DNA from: a bacterium
Lineage (GTDB): Bacteria > BMS3Abin14
Length of the DNA: 27,016 nucleotides
Direction of reading: 5' to 3'
NCBI GenBank assembly: GCA_020349685.1
Contig: CP070698.1
Location: 1,806,165-1,833,180, forward strand
Shown here piece by piece: positions 1 through 17,547 of this stretch (its first letter is position 1; each line of letters begins with the position of its first letter). The position numbers and the translations under genes are program-made. The notes under the pieces were generated by a model that worked only from the letters and a program-made list of their open reading frames with translations, ran no database searches and was not told where the DNA came from.

Positions 1-283
1 GCACACGAAGTTCAAGGCGGAGGTTTATGTATTGACGAAGGAGGAGGGCGGCCGCCACACGCCGTTCTTTGATGGCTATCGTCCTCAGTTTTATTTCCGC
101 ACGACGGACGTGACGGGTGTGACGACGCTTCCTTCTGAGGTGAAGATGGTGATGCCTGGCGACAACGTGTCGATAGAGGTTGAGCTGATCACTCCCATCG
201 CGATGGAGAAGGAGCTTCGCTTCGCCATCCGTGAGGGCGGCCGCACGGTCGGCGCCGGGGTCGTCAGCGAGATCATCGAGTAA
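1..283 (+). CDS. tuf: Elongation factor Tu, 3' part (truncated by window start)
   Basis: Frame from position 2 reads [23 protein letters not shown]...[21 protein letters not shown], the EF-Tu C-terminus. Protein is identical to the copy at 16349-17548 over the shared part. Confidence 0.99.
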
Positions 284-333
284 AATAGATCCGAACGGCA
301 GGTTTGACACCCCTTTTGTGGAGATAAAGTGAG

Positions 334-483
334 ATGCGTGTGATCATTACGCTGGAATGCACGGAATGCAAACAGCGGAACTATACGACAACCAAGAACA
401 AGAAGAACACCACCGAGAGGCTGGAAATCAAAAAATACTGTCGTTTCTGCGGGGGGCACAGGCCTCACAAGGAAACGAAGTAA
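334..483 (+). CDS. rpmG: 50S ribosomal protein L33 (bL33), Zn-ribbon C+ type, 49 aa
   Basis: Hand translation (below ORF-track cutoff): [49 protein letters not shown]. Two CxxC motifs, GGAG upstream, canonical tuf-rpmG-tRNA-Trp-secE order. Confidence 0.97.
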
Positions 484-509
484 ACCGAGTTCCGTCGCTT
501 TTAAGGGGA

Positions 510-586
510 AGGCCAGTAGCTCTAACGGTTAGAGCACCGGTCTCCAAAACCGGGTGATGGGGGTTCGAATCCCTCCTGGCCTGCCA
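510..586 (+). tRNA. tRNA-Trp (CCA)
   Basis: Cloverleaf: acceptor AGGCCAG/CTGGCCT, D stem GCTC/GAGC, anticodon stem CCGGT/ACCGG with loop CTCCAAA (CCA at 544-546), T loop TTCGAAT, discriminator G, encoded CCA end. Confidence 0.98.
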
Positions 587-646
587 TCAACCCTTTCAGG
601 CGATGGAGGGGATTTTTGCGTTGTTATCGACCGGGGATACCTTCAT

Positions 647-832
647 ATGCTGAAAAGGACACGCAGCTTTCTGACCGATGTCAGAGTTGAGCTGAAAAAG
701 GTCTCATGGCCCTCCAGGCAGGACACCATCGCCTCCACCGGTGTCGTCCTGGTGGTGGTTTTCATTATTTCATTCTACCTCGGGTTCATCGACATCCTCC
801 TGAGCAGAATGGTCACCTCGCTCTTCGGATAG
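647..832 (+). CDS. secE: Preprotein translocase subunit SecE (single TM, 61 aa)
   Basis: ELKKVSWPSR motif followed by one hydrophobic helix. Start moved to ATG647 because the track's 554 start overlaps the tRNA. Confidence 0.95.
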   Translation: MLKRTRSFLTDVRVELKKVSWPSRQDTIASTGVVLVVVFIISFYLGFIDILLSRMVTSLFG

Positions 833-856
833 CGGATCATGACTGGAGCAAAAGAT

Positions 857-1378
857 ATGAATTGGTTCGTGGTCCACACCCACACCGGGTTCGAGAGCCA
901 GGTGCGCGAGGCGATATTGCAGAAGTTCCGCGAAAAGGGGAAGGAAGAGGATCTCGGCGATGTCATGATCCCCTCAGAGGAGGTAGTGGAGCTCAAAAAG
1001 GGTAAAAAGAAGATCTCCTCGAGGAAGTTCTTCCCGGGCTACATCATGGTGCAGATGGTCATGAACGATGAGACCTGGCACCTGGTCAACAGCCTGCCCA
1101 AGGTCACAGGATTCGTGGGCGGATCGAACCCCGCGGCCCTGTCACCGGACGAGGTCGTCAAGATCCAGCAGCAGGTTGTGGAGGGGGCCGAACGGCCCAC
1201 ACCGAAGGTGGTCTTCTCGGTGGGTGAGAGTGTGAGGGTTGTGGACGGACCCTTTACCAACTTCAACGGTATGGTGAAAGAGGTCAACGAGGAGAAGGGC
1301 AAACTCAAGGTCCTGGTCACCATATTCGGTCGTGCTACATCGGTTGAGTTGGAGTTCCTCCAGGTGGAGAAGAACTAG
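857..1378 (+). CDS. nusG: Transcription termination/antitermination factor NusG
   Basis: [23 protein letters not shown] and KOW motif [13 protein letters not shown]...IFGR. GGAG at 845-848 favours ATG857 over 839. Confidence 0.98.
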
Positions 1379-1411
1379 CTGGAAGCTGCTAGCTGACGGC
1401 TATTGGCGAAA
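1377..1411. repeat. Degenerate heptanucleotide tandem repeat (AGCTGNN)
   Basis: AGCTGGA AGCTGCT AGCTGAC GGCTATT GGCGAAA, period 7, starting in the nusG stop codon. Confidence 0.55.
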
Positions 1412-1422
1412 AAGCAACAACC

Positions 1423-1630
1423 CGCGCCTGGGAAAGGCGCCCGGATCGCTGACCATCGCGCCTGGGAAGGGTGCCCGGATAAGTGACGGGAATAATATCA
1501 CTTTTCCGTAGAGCTAAAGTTTCACGAGAACTTTTGCGATTAACAGTAGTACCGTTAGGAAACCGAAAACCACGCTTTTCGGTTTCCGAGGAGCAGGAAG
1601 TCCCGCAAGGACTTTCTGCGACCCTAACAA
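1423..1630 (+). repeat. Multi-hairpin dispersed element, copy A (upstream of rplK)
   Basis: Hairpins at 1424-1440 (duplicated at 1458-1474), 1476-1508, 1558-1587 and 1593-1619. Homologous to 3810-3967; about 59/78 identical over the 3' half by hand alignment. Confidence 0.85.
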
Positions 1631-1645
1631 TGGAAGGAATTGCAG

Positions 1646-2068
1646 ATGGCTAAGAAGGTTATAGGTCTCATAAAACTTCAGATCCCGGCCGGGCAGGCCA
1701 ACCCCTCTCCCCCAGTGGGACCTGCGCTTGGACAGCATGGTGTCAACATCATGGAGTTCTGCAAGGCGTTCAACGCCCAGACCCAGGAGCAGGGCGGAAT
1801 GATCATCCCGGTGGTGATCACGGTCTACGCTGACCGGTCCTTCAGTTTTATCACCAAGACGCCTCCCGCCGCCGTGCTTCTCAGAAAAGCGGCCGGTATC
1901 GACAAAGGCTCCGGTGAACCCAACAGGCTCAAGGTGGGCAAGGTCACCAAAGCACAGGTTGAGGAGATCGCCCGTACCAAAATGCCGGATCTGAATGCCT
2001 ACAGCATTGAAGAAGCCATGAAGATGGTGGAAGGCACGGCACGCAGTATGGGGATCGTTGTAGAGTGA
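1646..2068 (+). CDS. rplK: 50S ribosomal protein L11 (uL11)
   Basis: [44 protein letters not shown]...[20 protein letters not shown] at 1632-1638 supports ATG1646. Confidence 0.99.
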
Positions 2069-2073
2069 TAGAT

Positions 2074-2155
2074 CGGAAAATGGAGATTAGAGATTAGAAA
2101 TTAGAGATTAATGTGCTCTTTATTCTAATTTCCAATTTCCAATATCTAATTTCCG
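2074..2155. repeat. Inverted array of heptamer repeats forming an imperfect ~32-bp hairpin
   Basis: (GAGATTA/GAAATTA)x4 at 2083-2110, then complementary (TCTAATT/TCCAATT/TCCAATA)x4 at 2124-2151. Confidence 0.85.
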
Positions 2156-2171
2156 TTTCAGGAGATCGAAT

Positions 2172-2873
2172 ATGAAAGCAGGAAAAAGATTTGCGGCTGC
2201 GGCCGAGAAGGTGGATCGCACTAAGGCCTACGATTTCGAGACGGCTATCGGGATCGTCAAGGAGACGGCTGTCGCCAAGTTCGATGAGACCATCGAATGC
2301 GCCGTCAGACTGGGTGTCGACCCCCGAAAGAGCGACCAGATGGTCCGCGGAGCCACGGTCCTGCCCCACGGCCTGGGCAAGGTGGAGCGCGTCCTCGTCT
2401 TTGCCAAGGGCGAGAAGGACAAGGAAGCCAGGGACGCCGGCGCGGACTATGTAGGTGCGGACGACCTGGCCGAAAAGATCCAGGGTGGATGGTTGGAGTT
2501 CGACAGGATCGTGGCCACACCGGACATGATGGGAGCCGTCGGCAAGCTGGGCAAGATCCTCGGCCCACGCGGTTTGATGCCCAACCCCAAGCTGGGGACC
2601 GTGACCTTCGAAATCACCAAGGCTATTCAGGAGATCAAGGCAGGAAAAGCGGAGTTCAAGACCGAAAAGAACGGAATCGTCCACTCCTCCATAGGGAAGG
2701 CAAGTTTCAGCTCCCAGCAGCTGACGGAAAACCTGACGGCTTTCCTGGATACTCTGCTCAAGCTCAAACCGGCTGCCAGCAAGGGGCGTTATTTCAGAAG
2801 CATCACGGTCTCCTCCACTATGGGGCCGGGGGTTAAGATCGATCCTGTCTGGGCGGTTAACGCACTGAGATAA
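2172..2873 (+). CDS. rplA: 50S ribosomal protein L1 (uL1)
   Basis: [45 protein letters not shown] motifs. Confidence 0.99.
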
Positions 2874-3033
2874 ATCAGGACCGGCCTGATAGGCCCGTCC
2901 AATGAAACTATTTCCGAGGTAGTTCGGATCCATGCAAGATGACCGGGTGGCTCTCCTCCCGGGGAGAGCGGTCGGATCGCGTCACGCGAGGCGCGTGACG
3001 CATTGCCCGTTGACGACATTGTTCACTGCAGGC

Positions 3034-3139
3034 CACACCGGAAGTTCCATGACAGCCGGGACCGCCGTAGCCCTGAGATTCCTCAAGGGCGAAGGTGGTT
3101 TAAACGCTCTTTATGAGCACCCTGCCGAGACGCGGTGTG
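3034..3139 (+). promoter_or_regulatory. Ribosomal protein L10 leader (L10-L7/L12 autoregulatory RNA)
   Basis: Outer stem CACACCG/CGGTGTG. Core GACAGCCGGG...ACCGCC/GGTGGT...TTAA...GCTC/GAGC hairpin...CCTGCCGAGAC resembles the L10-leader consensus as I recall it. Expected position between rplA and rplJ. Confidence 0.75.
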
Positions 3140-3262
3140 AATCTAAAGCATTCCATGGGGCGATCCTGGAAGGCTGCGGACCACTTCTAGTCTCATCCTG
3201 TCATAAGTCTGGCCGGCGTACTGAACGTCACGTCAGGAAACCGAAGGAAAGGAGGAGACGAA

Positions 3263-3784
3263 TTGGGACGAGCTGATAGAGAAAAACAGGTCCAGGAGCT
3301 TCACGAACTGTTCTCCGGGATCGAGATGGCCGTGCTCACTGATTACAGGGGGCTCACGGTCGAGGAGATCTCCGACCTCAGGACGAAGCTACGTGATGCC
3401 GAGGCCCGCTTTCGCGTCGTAAAGAACACGCTGTCCATCCGCGCGGCAGACGGGACACCTCTCGAGGCCGTGAAGGAGTATTTCACGGGGCCCGTCGCGA
3501 TCCTTTATACAGCAGGGGATCCGGTGGGTCCGGCCAAGGCCCTGATGGATTTCATCAAGGGCAACGATAAGCTCGAGGCCAAAGTAGGGATCTTGGCAGG
3601 CATCGCCATCGAGACCGCCGACATCAAGCGGCTCGCCGAAATGCCGAGCAAGGATGTCATGATCGCGCAGGCCTTGGGTTCAATGAACGCTCCCGTAACC
3701 AACTTCGTGCGAACGCTGTCCGAGATACCAGCCAGCTTCGTGAGGGTACTCGGTTCCATTCAACGCCAGAAAGAGGCCGCCTAG
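3263..3784 (+). CDS. rplJ: 50S ribosomal protein L10 (uL10)
   Basis: DYRGLTV, LR, VVKNTL, FTGP motifs. TTG start after AGGAGG SD. Confidence 0.98.
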   Translation: MGRADREKQVQELHELFSGIEMAVLTDYRGLTVEEISDLRTKLRDAEARFRVVKNTLSIRAADGTPLEAVKEYFTGPVAILYTAGDPVGPAKALMDFIKGNDKLEAKVGILAGIAIETADIKRLAEMPSKDVMIAQALGSMNAPVTNFVRTLSEIPASFVRVLGSIQRQKEAA

Positions 3785-3809
3785 GCCCTTTCAGATAATT
3801 GGAATCAAT

Positions 3810-3967
3810 TTTGATGGACTCACAAAAGCCATCAACGCGCCTGTAAGAGGCGCCCAGATCAATGACCCTTGATTCAAGTTATTGATCTGTGAGGAAAGCG
3901 GAAACGACGCTTTTCGCTTTTCGGTGGAACAAAAAGCCGCGAATGGACTTTTTGTGACCCTGTCAAA
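3810..3967 (+). repeat. Multi-hairpin dispersed element, copy B (upstream of rplL), MITE-like with imperfect terminal inverted repeats
   Basis: Ends TTTGATGGACTCACAAAAGCC / GGACTTTTTGTGACCCTGTCAAA. Internal hairpins at 3837-3853, 3855-3889, 3893-3922 and 3929-3955. Homologous to 1423-1630. Confidence 0.85.
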
Positions 3968-3993
3968 GGTTTCGTATCAGGAGGAAAAATACG

Positions 3994-4377
3994 ATGGCAG
4001 ATATTAAGAAGGAAGATGTTGTCCAGTTTATCGAGAACATGAGCGTTCTCGAGATGGCCGAGTTCGTCAAGGAGCTCGAGGAGAAGTTCGGCGTGTCGGC
4101 CGCCGCTCCGGTGGCCATTGCAGCCGTTCCCGGCGCCGCCCCGGGTGCCGCTGCCGAGGAGGAGAAAACCGAGTTTGACGTTGTCCTTGCCGAAGTGGGA
4201 GCGGAGAAGATCAAGGTCATCAAGGTTGTCCGCAGCCTTACGGGCCTGGGCCTGAAGGAGGCCAAGGACCTCGTCGACGGTGCCCCCGGCAACGTCAAGG
4301 AGGGCGTCTCCAAGGAAGAGGCCGAAGAGGCCAAGAAACAGCTTGAGGAGGCCGGTGCCAAGGTGGAGATCAAGTAA
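3994..4377 (+). CDS. rplL: 50S ribosomal protein L7/L12 (bL12)
   Basis: [44 protein letters not shown] motifs. AGGAGG SD. Confidence 0.99.
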
Positions 4378-4400
4378 CCCGGCGCTTCCCTGATTTTGAA

Positions 4401-4428
4401 GGGAGGAGGCCTGTGAAGGCCTCCTCCC
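4401..4428 (+). promoter_or_regulatory. Strong hairpin in rplL-rpoB spacer (possible attenuator, processing or stability element)
   Basis: Perfect 12-bp stem GGGAGGAGGCCT/AGGCCTCCTCCC with GNRA loop GTGA. The U-tract is delayed (ATACCTGCTTTT), so it is not a strong terminator. Confidence 0.55.
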
Positions 4429-4483
4429 ATACCTGCTTTTAAAGCACAAATGTTTTTTTGCCGTATCCACGTGAGGTGAGACG

Positions 4484-7400
4484 ATGGCACAAGCCGCAAA
4501 ACCCCACATACCGCTGCGTAGAGACTTTTCCAGGTTGCCCTCCATCATCGGTATGCCCAATCTGATCGAGGTTCAGAAGGAATCCTACGAAAAGTTTCTG
4601 CAGATGAACGTTGACCCGGAGCAGCGGGAAGAGATTGGTCTCCACGCCGTCTTCAAGGGTATTTTCCCCATCGAGGATTACTCGCGGACGACCCTTCTCG
4701 ATTACGTCAAGTACGACATTCTGGAGTCAAAATTCGACGTACAGGAATGTCAGGACAGGGGCATGACCTTCGCGGCCCCTCTTAATGTCACTATTCGCCT
4801 GATCCACCTTGAGGTCGATGAGGACACCAAGTCCAAGAAGGTTCGCGAGGTCAAGGAACAGGAAGTCTACCTGGGAGAAATACCTCTCATGACCGCCAAC
4901 GGGACCTTTATCATCAACGGGACCGAGCGGGTCATCGTCAGTCAGCTGCACCGGAGCCCGGGTGTCTTCTACGAACTGGACAAGAGCAAGTCCATGATCG
5001 GGGGCCGCCCTCTCTATTCGGCGCGTGTCATCCCGTATCGCGGATCCTGGCTTGATTTCGAATACGACGCCAAGGGGCTTATCAATGTGCGCATCGACAG
5101 GCGCCGCAAGATCCCCGCTACGATCCTGCTCAGAGCCCTCGGCTATAACCCGGAACAGATCATCCGCCTCTTCTACCCCATTGACCATATACGCCTGGAG
5201 GGGGGAAAGGCTTACAAAAAATATCAGCGGAAAACCGTCGAGATGCAGAACGTTTCCAGGGACATCGTCGACCCGGCCACGGGTGACGTTCTCGTCAGGG
5301 AAGGACGCAAAGTCTTCGCCTCTTCGGCAAGGAAGATCGAAACGGCCGGTATTACCGAGTTCGAGATCGACCTTGCCACCGACCTTCTCGGCCGGCACCT
5401 GGCGACTCCCGTGGTGGATACCTCCTCGGGTGAGATCATAGGGGACTGCAACGACGAGATCACGGAAGAGATGCTCGGACAGATCACCAGCGCCGGCGTG
5501 ATGGAACTGGAGGTACTCTTCATCGACAACAACCGCTACGAGAGTTCCCTCAGGGACACCCTGGCCACCGACAAGGTCCTGAATGAGGAAGACGCCCTTC
5601 TGGAGATCTACAGAAAGCTTCGTCCCGGTGACCCCCCCACCCTGGAAACGGCCAAGGCCCACTTCGACAGGCTTTTCTTTTCGGACGACCGCTACGACCT
5701 CTCCCGGGTGGGACGCCTGAAGATCAACATCAAGCTCGAGGAGGAGCTCAAGGAGGTTTTCGGCGGCGAGGTGCCGCCCCTCGAGGCCCGTGTCCTCATG
5801 AGGGAGGACATCGTGGCCATCATGAAATACCTCGTCAAGCTCAGGAGCGGAACCAAGGAAGCGCTCGCCGACGATATAGATCATCTGGGAAATCGCCGCG
5901 TCCGCAGTGTAGGCGAACTCCTCGAAAACCAGTTCAGGATAGGCCTCGTTCGCATGGAACGCGCCATCAAGGAGCGCATGAGCATCCAGGAGATGGAAAC
6001 GGTCATGCCCCACGACCTCATCAATGCCAAGCCGGTGTCGGCCGTGGTGAAGGAGTTCTTCGGTTCCAGCCAATTGTCCCAGTTCATGGACCAGACCAAC
6101 CCCCTTTCCGAGATCACGCACAAGAGGCGCCTTTCGGCCCTCGGTCCCGGCGGGTTGACAAGGGAAAGAGCCGGTTTCGAGGTCAGGGACGTTCATCCCA
6201 CGCACTATGGAAGGATCTGCCCCATCGAGACCCCCGAAGGTCCCAACATCGGGCTTATCTCCTCACTGAGCACCTATGCCCAGATCAACGAGTTCGGTTT
6301 CATCGAGACGCCCTATCGCAAGGTGGAGGATGGCAAGGTAACCAGCGAGATCATCTACCTGTCGGCTCTGGAGGAGGACAAGTATTCCATTGCCCAGGCC
6401 AACGCCCCCCTGGACGGCAAAAACCGCTTCCTGGACGACTTCGTTGCCGCCCGCGTCGGCGGCGAACCCACCATGGTTCCCAAGGAGGATGTCCAGCTCA
6501 TGGACGTTTCCCCCAGGCAGCTGGTTTCCGTTGCGGCCTCCCTGATCCCCTTCCTCGAGAACGATGACGCCAACCGCGCGCTCATGGGATCCAACATGCA
6601 GCGGCAGGCCGTGCCCCTTCTCACCACGATGGCTCCCCTCGTCGGGACAGGGATGGAAGCGGTTTCGGCCAGGGATTCAGGCGCCGTGGTCATCGCAAAG
6701 CGCAGTGGACGGGTGGAGAGCGTCGACGCGGGTCGCATAGTCATCCAGGTTGATGAATCCGAGGAGGAGAAGGAAGGCGTGGAGGGATCCTCCAACGTTG
6801 ATATCTATCACCTGACCAAGTTCATGCGGTCGAACCAGAACACCTGCATCAACCAGGTGCCCATCGTCCAGCCCGGCCAGCACGTGGCTGCCCGTGAGGT
6901 TATAGCGGACGGTCCCGCCACAAGCATGGGGGAACTGGCGCTGGGCAAAAACATCCTCGTGGCCTTCATGCCATGGAACGGGTACAACTTCGAGGACTCC
7001 ATACTCGTCAGCGAGAGGCTTGTCGAGGATGACGTTTTCACCTCCATCCACATCGAGGAGTTCGAGGTGATGGCCCGGGACACCAAACTGGGCAAGGAGG
7101 AGATCACCAGGGATATCCCCAACGTGGGAGAGGAGGCTCTAAAGGATCTGGACGAGTCGGGGATCGTGCGCATCGGGGCGGAGGTCAAATCCGGAGATAT
7201 CCTCGTCGGCAAGGTAACCCCCAAAGGTGAGACACAGCTCACGCCGGAGGAGAAGCTCCTCAGGGCCATTTTCGGAGAGAAGGCGGGTGATGTCCGCGAC
7301 ACATCCCTGCGTGTGCCGCCCGGAGTCGAAGGCGTCGTCATCGACGTCAAGGTCTTCTCCAGGAGAGGCATGGACAAGGACACCCGGGCTCAGACAATCG

Positions 7401-8662
7401 AGGACGATCAGGTCGCCCGCTACATCAAGGACAGGGATGACGAGATCAGGATCGTGCGAAACTCGATGTATGAGAAGATCCGTTCCACAATTCTCGGCAG
7501 GAAGCTCGCCGCGGACCTCAAGGGGCCCGACGGCAGCGCCCTGGGAAAGAAAGAAGGTAAGGTGACGGCCAAGATCCTGGATGAACTGCCGAAGGTCAAA
7601 TGGTTCGACATCCCCCTTGCCGATGCCAAGGCCCTCGAGCGCATGATGAGCCTGCGCCGGCGGTCCGAAAACCAGGAGCAGATGATCCGCAAGCTTTTTG
7701 ACGGAAAGATCGAAAAACTTCGGAAGGGTGATGAGCTTCCGCCGGGTGTCATCAAGATGGTCAAGGTTTACCTGGCGATCAAGCGCCAGCTGGCTGTCGG
7801 GGATAAAATGGCCGGACGCCACGGCAACAAGGGTGTCCTCTCGAAGATCGTTCCCATCGAGGATATGCCCTACATGGAAGACGGAACCCCCGTCGATATG
7901 GTTCTGAACCCCCTGGGCGTTCCCAGCCGTATGAACGTGGGCCAGATCCTCGAAACCATGCTCGGTTGGGCTGCCAAGGGTATCGGGCAGAAGGTCGGGC
8001 GGATGCTCGATGAAAGCGTCTCCATAACCAAGCTCAGGGGTATTCTCAAGGATGTTTACGGCGCTGACAAGACCACCGAAGCCGGCAAAAGGCTTAAAGC
8101 GGCCATCGACGAACTGGATGATGATGATGTCCGGACCCTGGCTCAGGACCTGAAAGAGGGGGTCCTCGTCGCCTCCCCGGTCTTCGACGGAGCCAACGAG
8201 GATGAGATCAAGGATCTCCTCAAGATCTCCGATCTGCCCCTGCGGGGGCAGGCCAGGCTCTACGATGGAAAGAGCGGAGATCCCTTCCACCGCACCGTGA
8301 CAGTCGGCTTCATCTACATGATGAAGCTCCACCATCTCGTGGACGACAAGATCCACGCCCGTTCCATAGGGCCTTATTCCCTCGTGACCCAGCAGCCTCT
8401 GGGTGGTAAGGCCCAGTTCGGCGGACAGCGGTTCGGCGAGATGGAGGTCTGGGCCCTGGAAGGCTACGGAGCTGCCCACACGCTGCAGGAGATGCTCACC
8501 GTGAAATCGGACGACGTCGCTGGAAGGACCAAAATGTACGAGGCCATCGTCAAGGGTCACAACAACATGGACGCCGGCCTGCCCGAATCATTCAACGTCC
8601 TGGTCAAGGAGCTTCAGAGCTTCTGCCTGGATGTGGAACTTTTGGAAGAAGAGGAAGTTTAG
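4484..8662 (+). CDS. rpoB: DNA-directed RNA polymerase subunit beta
   Basis: 1392 aa. [71 protein letters not shown]. Confidence 0.99.
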
Positions 8663-8686
8663 AAGGACCGTATACAGCCACGTTTT

Positions 8687-8717
8687 CTGAGTACTGGGTA
8701 CTGTGTACTGGGTACTG
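8687..8717. repeat. Heptanucleotide tandem repeat (CTGNGTA)x4.4
   Basis: CTGAGTA CTGGGTA CTGTGTA CTGGGTA CTG in the rpoB-rpoC spacer. Confidence 0.9.
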
Positions 8718-8734
8718 TTTCCTGGAGGTATTAA

Positions 8735-12850
<4,116 letters not shown>

Positions 12851-16348: not shown

Positions 16349-17547
<1,199 letters not shown>

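Follow-up and report, generated by a model that had tools for sequence, protein, structure and literature searches.

The window, by which we mean the whole analysed stretch of 27,016 nucleotides (nt; genome positions 1806165-1833180), contains a ribosomal protein (r-protein) operon in which two spacers, nusG-rplK and rplJ-rplL, carry related hairpin-rich sequences, and the question raised by this locus is what these sequences are. The original prediction, made from the sequence alone, described them as one four-hairpin element that is either a non-autonomous mobile element or a cis-regulatory RNA shared by two ribosomal stalk genes. [quoted passage not shown] The mobile element alternative is borne out by dispersed copies on both strands, terminal inverted repeats (TIRs), target-site duplications and empty orthologous sites, and is also backed by a candidate partner that carries a transposase gene and shares the TIR core. 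In what follows, the window's own genome, a draft of 2.03 Mb with 57.9% G+C and 343 runs of N between its pieces, is called G000, and 15 other genomes of the same family, f1, are called G001 to G015.

Two insertions in one ribosomal protein operon

In a MAFFT alignment, the two spacers were homologous and co-oriented, and their 3′ halves (1553-1630 and 3889-3967) shared 59 identical bases of 78/79, which exactly reproduced the earlier value of 59/78. The four hairpins that had been quoted (H1 to H4), the compensatory changes in them, and the GACCCTnnCAA tail were all present in the sequence as read. The H1 module was found three times, at 1423-1453, 1457-1487, and 3836-3866, with an identity of 81-84%. 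The predicted folding energies were -62.5 kcal/mol (z -5.5) for the rplL copy and -84.5 kcal/mol (z -5.1) for the rplK stretch, and in each case 0 of 200 shuffled sequences folded as well.

The rplJ-rplL spacer contains a complete MITE copy of 152 nt on the + strand at 3813-3964, the termini of which were set from 54 aligned complete elements and from the comparison of filled and empty sites with G001 and G002. It matched the covariance model R1 (described below) with 122.3 bits at genome positions 1809997-1810125. Its parts, all on the + strand, are the 5′ TIR with hairpin H0 (about 3811-3835), H1 (GCGCC ... GGCGC, 3837-3853), H2 (3855-3889), H3 (3893-3922), and H4 (3929-3955), the 3′ arm of which is the core of the 3′ TIR, followed by the tail. 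The four-hairpin description was therefore right about the homology and the hairpins, but the rplL copy starts earlier, with the fifth hairpin H0, which arises from the 5′ TIR region and precedes the first unit in most complete copies. The flanking hexamers on the + strand, AATTTT on the left (3807-3812) and AAAGGT on the right (3965-3970), agree at only 3 of 6 positions and represent a target-site duplication that has decayed; in G002, the copy in this spacer has a perfect AATGTT on both sides. The Shine-Dalgarno sequence and start codon (3994) of rplL lie beyond the right hexamer and are intact, with the end of the MITE 29 nt before the start codon.

The nusG-rplK spacer contains a degenerate composite of the same MITE on the + strand at about 1423-1628, without the 5′ TIR and without H0. 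Its parts in order are H1 (1424-1440), a second H1 (1458-1474), H2 (1476-1508), an H4-like remnant (approximately 1511-1546), H3 (1558-1587), H4 (1593-1619), and the tail GACCCTAAC (1620-1628), which ends 17 nt before the rplK start codon. It matched R1 with 92.1 bits at genome positions 1807618-1807789, equivalent to window positions 1454-1625, and was split by nhmmer into two partial matches. The rplK copy is thus a rearranged remnant in which H1 is doubled and a degenerate H4-like piece stands between H2 and H3, and which lacks the 5′ end.

Size, spread, and age of the family

In G000, 17 matches were obtained by a DNA search and 23 per query by single-sequence nhmmer, and iterated nhmmer settled at 28 matches, located on both strands. 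Tandem arrays are present (for example, four units at 692067-692586), as are runs of the H1 module alone, and tandem H1-H4 units occur without H0 and the 5′ end. Three of the matches abut assembly gaps; therefore, the real copy number is probably higher, and in this draft genome the family is one that breaks assemblies. An alignment of the 19 near-full-length copies among the 28 matches, with the 9 partial ones left out, was folded with RNAalifold into four hairpins with 37 pairs, of which 20 had compensatory changes. The covariance model R1 was built from this alignment and gave 28 matches in the own genome, 23 of them strong and 5 weak and on the opposite strand of known copies.

Using R1, the element was found in 14 of the 15 other genomes of family f1, which represent nine genera, whereas the 26 genomes tested from other families gave 0 matches. 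A phylum-wide query returned the same 16 genomes, so that in this collection the family is equivalent to the phylum, and 15 of these 16 match. With up to 150 candidates scored per genome, the numbers of matches were at least 150 each in G001, G006, and G007, 138 in G014, 108 in G013, and 82 in G015; the complete genome G003 contained no element. The R1 bit scores in other genera equalled those in G000, and the whole 128-nt core was conserved, beyond the TIRs. One MITE family is common to all nine genera sampled of this uncultured sediment lineage.

A pattern scan of the genomes of 185,579 species gave at least 114 stretches, and those listed were all in draft genomes named 'Proteobacteria/Pseudomonadota bacterium' or 'bacterium', except for two very short contigs binned elsewhere. 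The canonical copy had no match in plasmid and phage collections by distant blastn, and a pattern scan of IMG/VR gave 0 stretches. At least half of the words sampled were found in 18 sediment or estuary DNA runs, and small shares in 2 metatranscriptome runs, from which we draw no claim about habitat or expression.

In a quick tree of 121 copies, the number of genome-label changes was 36, compared to 66-75 in ten shuffles. The copies cluster by genome, and therefore amplification continued after the lineages split. The copies in G000 are old, with a median pairwise identity of 0.70 and a maximum of 0.94.

Two observations on individual copies may be recorded here. One copy on the - strand at genome position ~1152500 (L008) has its 3′ end, as judged by eye, ~8 nt from the start of a tRNA-like gene on the same strand. 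Two near-identical genes with the Pfam domain DUF503 (genome 272169-272477 and 1632618-1632926; L006 and L016) each lie just downstream of element arrays, with an assembly gap close by; they are probably one locus assembled twice from strain variants, which would mean some redundancy in the draft genome.

Termini and target-site duplication

The flanks of 125 full copies in other genomes were collected, of which 116 were non-redundant, and 54 complete elements were aligned. The complete element is ~152-165 nt long, and 59 of 71 paired 5′ and 3′ ends were 150-199 nt apart. The element starts with GATGACTTCGCAAAAAGTC and ends with GACTTTTTGCGACCCTATC, and the 3′ end read as its reverse complement is GATAGGGTCGCAAAAAGTC. 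The TIRs are therefore imperfect and ~19 nt long, with 15 of 19 positions in agreement in the consensus of the 54 elements and TCGCAAAAAGTC as the common core. The start of the element pairs with a following ATCAAC to form H0, and H4 holds the 3′ TIR, such that the element is made of five local hairpins, H0 to H4, and not of one long stem between the TIRs.

The consensus of the flanks was AAnGTT on the left and AAnRWT on the right, and the target-site duplication is 6-7 bp with the consensus AAnGTT. In the 48 complete non-redundant copies in which both termini were recognised by pattern, the flanking hexamers were identical in 9, compared to 1.2 expected from shuffled pairings, and agreed at 5 of 6 positions in a further count of 10 of 48, compared to 6.4 expected. 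Exact direct repeats of at least 5 nt (5-9 nt, with small offsets allowed) were found in 16 of 48, compared to 2.44 expected, a value reached in 0 of 1000 shuffles. Hexamers that deviate from AAnnTT, such as AAGGAT and ATTAAT, were matched on both sides, and therefore these repeats are true duplications and not an extension of the TIRs. A rule by which heptamer tandem repeats would mark the insertion site was dropped, as a strict test of it succeeded for no more than 2 of the 116 left flanks.

Filled and empty sites in related genomes

The original prediction had named many scattered copies with empty orthologous sites as the sign of a MITE, and both were found. The rplJ-rplL spacer is filled in G000, in G002 (on two contigs), and in G006, and it is empty in G001, G003, and G007. 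The composite in the nusG-rplK spacer is present in G000 only; the site is empty in G001, G002, and G003, in G006 it holds a mini element of ~50 nt that consists of the TIRs only and has AACCT at its flanks, and it lies beyond the end of the contig in G007. The rplK-rplA spacer is filled in G006, which thus has extra copies in further spacers of this operon.

Two loci outside the operon gave the same kind of result. At locus H (genome 813345-813508), G000 has AAAGTT on both sides of a complete but very diverged copy, whereas the site is empty in G002, where AAAGGTT stands only once. In G001 this spot is occupied by a truncated H3-H4 copy from another subfamily, and the locus looks like a hot spot for insertion at AAAGTT. 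Locus R is filled in G000 and empty in G001 and G002.

Given these differences between relatives, the insertions in the operon are accidents of a mobile element and not part of the operon design. In the rplJ-rplL spacer the insertion is old but intact and is shared with two of the five relatives examined; the one in the nusG-rplK spacer has decayed and been rearranged, and is present in this genome only.

A candidate partner transposase

A scan of metagenomes for the 5′ TIR without a following H1 gave at least 120 stretches. Among the stretches listed, the 19-nt end GATGGCTTCGCAAAAAGTC heads many small elements (~115-170 nt) with other hairpin cores (loci L183-L302), and several of these alternative cores recur on many contigs. 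The inverted core was found downstream in 47 of the 129 occurrences listed, at 97-155 nt in most cases. This looks like a MITE superfamily, across taxa, that shares the ends of one transposase.

The metagenome contig L302 contains a 1.87-kb insertion sequence (IS) with TIRs that agree at 18 of 20 positions and an open reading frame (ORF) of 578 aa with the domains DUF772, DDE_Tnp_1_6, and DDE_Tnp_1. Its 5′ TIR agrees with that of the MITE at 19 of 20 positions. A homologue of this transposase (57% identity, 520 aa, DUF772 and DDE_Tnp_1) was found in G007, which is also the genome with the most first-look candidates for the element. The IS in G007 is ~1.67 kb long, with one end GATGGACCCGCAATTAGTC and the other, as its reverse complement, GACGGCATCGCAAAAAGTA; its right end contains TCGCAAAAAGT and agrees with the MITE TIR at 15 of 19 positions. 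The flanks of this IS are AACCTT and AATATT, and on the left it directly adjoins a MITE copy, at the right duplication of that copy. The best NCBIfam model for both transposases was that of the IS1182 family, and we name them 'IS1182-like' rather than members of IS1182.

Other candidates were rejected. The transposase near the copy on contig C79 of G001 belongs to an unrelated IS beside host genes, and that near the copy on contig C157 of the same genome to an IS3-type element, neither of them with MITE ends. A long version of the element, with its 5′ and 3′ halves 0.3-4 kb apart, was not found among 184 matches. Five long TIR pairs of 1.8-7.2 kb were inspected as possible ISs, and in the four that were searched with Pfam (all but L204) only ordinary host genes were found; therefore, such pairs each consist of two small elements that are separate and inverted relative to each other, and only L302 is an IS.

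Proposed mechanism and points against it

We propose that a DDE transposase acting in trans would bind the TIRs and make a staggered cut at AAnGTT-like intergenic sites, with insertion in either orientation. The best candidate for this enzyme would be the IS1182-like transposase with the same TIR core, in the related genome and on the metagenome contig. Both insertions stop just short of Shine-Dalgarno sequences, so they presumably ride along in the operon transcript, for which they would not be needed. The hairpins are kept by selection on one element strand, and our guess is that the folded top strand, either as single-stranded DNA or as an RNA of the element's own, matters for propagation or retention.

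Several results weigh against the MITE interpretation or parts of it. Under the scoring used above, 21 of the 48 copies were without a direct repeat at their flanks, for which old age, variable length of the duplication, and abutting copies could be reasons. The two transposases scored 116.3 and 169.3 bits, below the cut-off of 270 of the IS1182 model NF033551. Only 4 of the 16 genomes yielded an IS1182-like protein, at full length in one (G007), partial in two (G010 and G012), and distant in one (G001), and none was found in G000; fragmented draft genomes may hide ISs. The flanks of the G007 IS are not identical (4 of 6 positions), and its own ends agree at only 12 of 19. In a scan of seven Pfam families in the 16 genomes, no transposase family tracked the element: the numbers of genomes with matches were 6 for rve, 6 for DDE_Tnp_1, 10 for Y1_Tnp, 3 for IS110, 1 for ISL3, 3 for the IS256 type, and 0 for TnpB. 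Given the age of the G000 copies, current activity in that genome is not shown. Lastly, cut-and-paste transposition of double-stranded DNA predicts neither conserved internal hairpins nor the strand-specific excess of G-U pairs described in the next section.

Covariation and a one-strand G-U bias

A cmsearch run over 503,673 bases, taken from 99 loci in other genomes, gave 123 matches at E ≤ 1e-10, with 121 distinct rows. In this 123-copy alignment, 97.1% of stem cells were paired, compared to 90.7% after shuffling; changes on both sides were found at 21 of 37 pairs, compared to 9.8, and in 296 cells, compared to 88.5. None of the three values was reached in 500 shuffles, and pairing fell to 38-56% when the partners were slid by 1-3 columns. 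The alignment was fitted to the R1 model and so leans towards the structure, and the independent MAFFT and RNAalifold result on the G000 copies concurs with it.

Changes on both sides were distributed over H2 (8 of 12 pairs), H3 (5 of 12), and H4 (5 of 8). The stem sequence of H1 is nearly invariant, with the same pair in 110-113 of 121 distinct rows at each of its 5 pairs, as are the unpaired linkers. Between G000 and G002, the rplL copies are distinguished by two double changes that preserve pairing, G-C to A-T at the second pair of H2 and A-T to G-C in H4. The arms of H4 covary locally, with no long stem between the TIRs: in a subfamily with the 3′ end TTTTTACGA, the 5′ arm of H4 is GTAAAAAG, and the 5′ TIR mostly stays CGCAA.

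On the top strand of the element, the pair cells contained 144 G-U or U-G compared to 31 A-C or C-A combinations; 11 pair positions had at least 4 G-U, and 0 had at least 4 A-C. The placement of 137 copies in relatives, with flanking ORFs called by a crude longest-ORF rule, was 23 sense and 22 antisense between co-directional ORFs. Among 19 sense copies, the counts of G-U and A-C were 25 and 7, and among 16 antisense copies they were 15 and 1. The excess is thus present in both orientations, and therefore the selection is on one strand of the element and not on host messenger RNA. That selection acts on a single-stranded fold, with G-U pairs valid on the + strand, had been proposed earlier and is upheld by this alignment.

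Structural selection on one strand thus extends from the ends of the element to its interior, for which standard DDE transposition is no explanation. One reading of this, which we regard as unlikely, is that the five-hairpin core is more than part of a passive MITE and is a strand-specific functional fold kept across the candidate phylum. If so, the core would be either the single-stranded substrate of a transposition pathway that nonetheless produces a 6-bp duplication or a structured RNA that the element encodes and that the recombinase or the host needs, and, given the alternative cores behind the same ends in metagenomes, one transposase clade would be moving interchangeable structured 'cargo' modules through many lineages.

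Alternative explanations

We considered it very unlikely that the element is REP/BIME-like or derived from IS200/IS605 (PATE-like), that is, a folded single-stranded DNA moved by a tyrosine transposase of the HUH type (RAYT/TnpA) with the hairpins as recognition sites. This would suit the five local hairpins without a single long stem between TIRs, the G-U excess that is independent of host transcription, the modular build with tandem units without H0 and repeats of H1 only, and the element end TCAA. Genes with a Y1_Tnp domain (IS200-like, RAYT-like), in frames of 230-345 aa, are present in the 10 genomes counted above; G000 has two such genes (genome positions 128191-128514 and 1984779-1985033), one with HUH-like and Y motifs. 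However, IS200/IS605 and REP elements are not known to make target duplications or TIRs, and both are present here. Furthermore, G003 has two Y1_Tnp genes and no element, whereas G005 and G010 (each 98% complete) have the element and no Y1_Tnp match; by comparison of coordinates, no copy adjoins the Y1_Tnp genes of G000, and the TnpB zinc ribbon (PF07282) was found in 0 of the 16 genomes.

A mobile gene for a structured noncoding RNA with its own transcription signals, the five-hairpin product of which would be a recombinase cofactor or beneficial to the host, seems to us slightly more doubtful again. A function would explain the retention across nine genera, and the conservation of the whole 128-nt core with equal bit scores across genera, the near-invariant linkers and H1 stem, and the one-strand G-U excess in both orientations are consistent with it. 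Sharing across genera is also unusual, given that 97.4% of MITEs were genus-specific in a survey of 183,232 genomes (PMC11602168). Against this, no sigma-70-like promoter was found in window positions 1300-4500, compared to 1.2 expected (terminator-like sites, from the consensus scan run with that for promoters, were 3 compared to 4.0 expected and so are uninformative), there was no Rfam match, and many copies are truncated, rearranged, or TIR-only, as in decaying transposon copies.

Finally, a dedicated cis-regulatory RNA (leader or attenuator) of rplK and rplL, bound by L11, L1, or L10-L12, is refuted and almost certainly wrong: although both copies are sense-oriented and closely precede the Shine-Dalgarno sequences of two r-protein genes, the fold is strong, and the rplJ-rplL copy is shared by three genomes with compensatory changes between G000 and G002, both insertions are absent from the same spacers in the close relatives named above, the other G000 matches lie between ORFs taken as unrelated, orientation relative to flanking ORFs is random in relatives, TIRs and target duplications are present, and G006 has copies at further operon spacers.

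The MITE interpretation has practical consequences. Both spacers should be annotated as repeat insertions and not as regulatory leaders. Because the covariation is so strong, screens for structured RNAs in this lineage are prone to rediscover the family as a 'novel riboswitch-like motif'. Insertion is also tolerated at 17-29 nt from start codons within an operon that ranks among the most highly expressed.

Neighbouring genes and other features of the window

The gene names given originally agree with the Pfam matches to NusG, L11, L1, L10, and L7/L12. The window starts with the end of a tuf gene, followed by a short ORF (334-483) and a tRNA found by the Rfam search (510-583). The upstream neighbour of the composite copy is nusG (839-1378, + strand; NusG and KOW), and the r-protein genes are rplK (L11; 1646-2068, + strand; Ribosomal_L11_N and Ribosomal_L11), rplA (L1; 2172-2873), rplJ (L10; 3263-3784, + strand; Ribosomal_L10), and rplL (L7/L12; 3994-4377, + strand; Ribosomal_L12 and Ribosomal_L12_N), after which there are two very long ORFs. 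Two tuf segments of 281 nt each (2-282 and 17267-17547) are 98% identical; they belong to the usual pair of duplicated tuf genes and have apparently been kept alike.

The rplK-rplA spacer (2069-2171) contains a second, unrelated dispersed repeat, an AT-rich long palindrome of heptamer-like units, of the GAGATTA type on one arm and its complement on the other, with 46 more blastn matches elsewhere in the own genome. With this palindrome counted, 3 of the 4 spacers of the r-protein operon contain repeat insertions. The rplA-rplJ spacer (2874-3262), 389 nt upstream of rplJ, is kept at ~80% identity in G001 and G002; it had no Rfam match at E ≤ 10, with the L10 leader included in the search, and may be a divergent leader.

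The Rfam search that had been called for gave no family match for the element. With Rfam 15, window positions 1-9000 gave at E ≤ 1 only the tRNA and two weak microRNA look-alikes at 2069-2159, which are spurious matches to plant families within the rplK-rplA palindrome, and positions 3790-3990 gave at E ≤ 10 only two chance-level rows of 14.2 and 6.8 bits.

Comparison with known systems

BOX elements of Streptococcus pneumoniae and BIME/REP elements of enterobacteria are modular, with a variable number of modules, strong local hairpins, and transcribed intergenic locations in either orientation, and REPs are far shorter than the element described here. There is no sequence relation to these, and for the present element the target duplication is clear and there is a DDE transposase as candidate partner. 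REP/BIME elements with RAYT consist of palindromes of 20-40 nt, are not known to make a target duplication, and flank the RAYT gene with repeats; here, the unit is ~128-160 nt with five hairpins and a target duplication, and the presence of Y1_Tnp does not track it. PATEs derived from IS200/IS605 are not known to have TIRs or a duplication, insert 3′ of a fixed tetra- or pentanucleotide, and occur where TnpA/TnpB are present, whereas here a variable hexamer is duplicated on both sides, and the lack of a TnpB match in the 16 genomes likewise speaks against a scaffold of a TnpB guide RNA.

The leaders of r-protein genes (the Rfam L10 leader and others) are similar to the present insertions in their location in spacers of r-protein operons and, if the insertions are transcribed, in being structured RNAs. 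The element differs from them in having no Rfam match, in its genome-wide dispersal, and in its lack of conservation at orthologous sites, so that neither restriction to r-protein leaders nor autoregulation of the r-protein type describes it.

A text search of the literature for the TIR strings gave no paper on the element, only unrelated matches to insect primers. General searches on MITEs gave no description of this family among the papers listed, and the supplementary tables of PMC11602168 might list it.

MITEs are defined in PMC3184786 as generally <200 bp and up to ~400 bp in length and without a transposase gene. By the criteria given there, every MITE-defining feature that can be tested in silico is present: the small size without a transposase gene, as seen in the spacing of the paired ends and in the window copy; TIRs, flanking direct repeats, and dispersed copies with filled and empty sites; and TIRs like those of an autonomous IS of a related organism, on the basis of the two IS copies examined, neither of them in G000. 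The closest comparisons are Nezha (Anabaena/Nostoc), Chunjie (Geobacter uraniireducens), and ERIC (enterobacteria), which are alike in their size of <200 bp, TIRs, direct repeats, and lack of a transposase gene, and in intergenic sites, stable folds, filled and empty sites, and TIRs resembling an IS of a relative (PMC3184786). The duplication is TA in ERIC and 9 bp in Chunjie, compared to 6-7 bp at AAnGTT here (PMC3184786).

MITEs of 160 bp and 169 bp in the archaeon Methanosarcina acetivorans have been tied to the IS1182-family partner ISMac2 (PMC3852290), and they are similar to the present family in their length of ~160 bp and in the assignment of an IS1182-family partner through common inverted repeats. 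Their inverted repeats are 25-26 bp and their direct repeats 4 or 0 bp (PMC3852290), whereas here the TIRs are imperfect and ~19 nt, the duplication is 6-7 bp, and the transposase is below the IS1182 cut-off.

Unlike Nezha, Chunjie, and ERIC, with their one long stem from TIR to TIR, the family described here has five separate hairpins with many compensatory changes and a one-strand G-U bias, it forms tandem H1-H4 units without the 5′ end, and it is shared by nine genera. This sharing and the strand-specific, compensated five-hairpin core are the two traits that are uncommon for a MITE.

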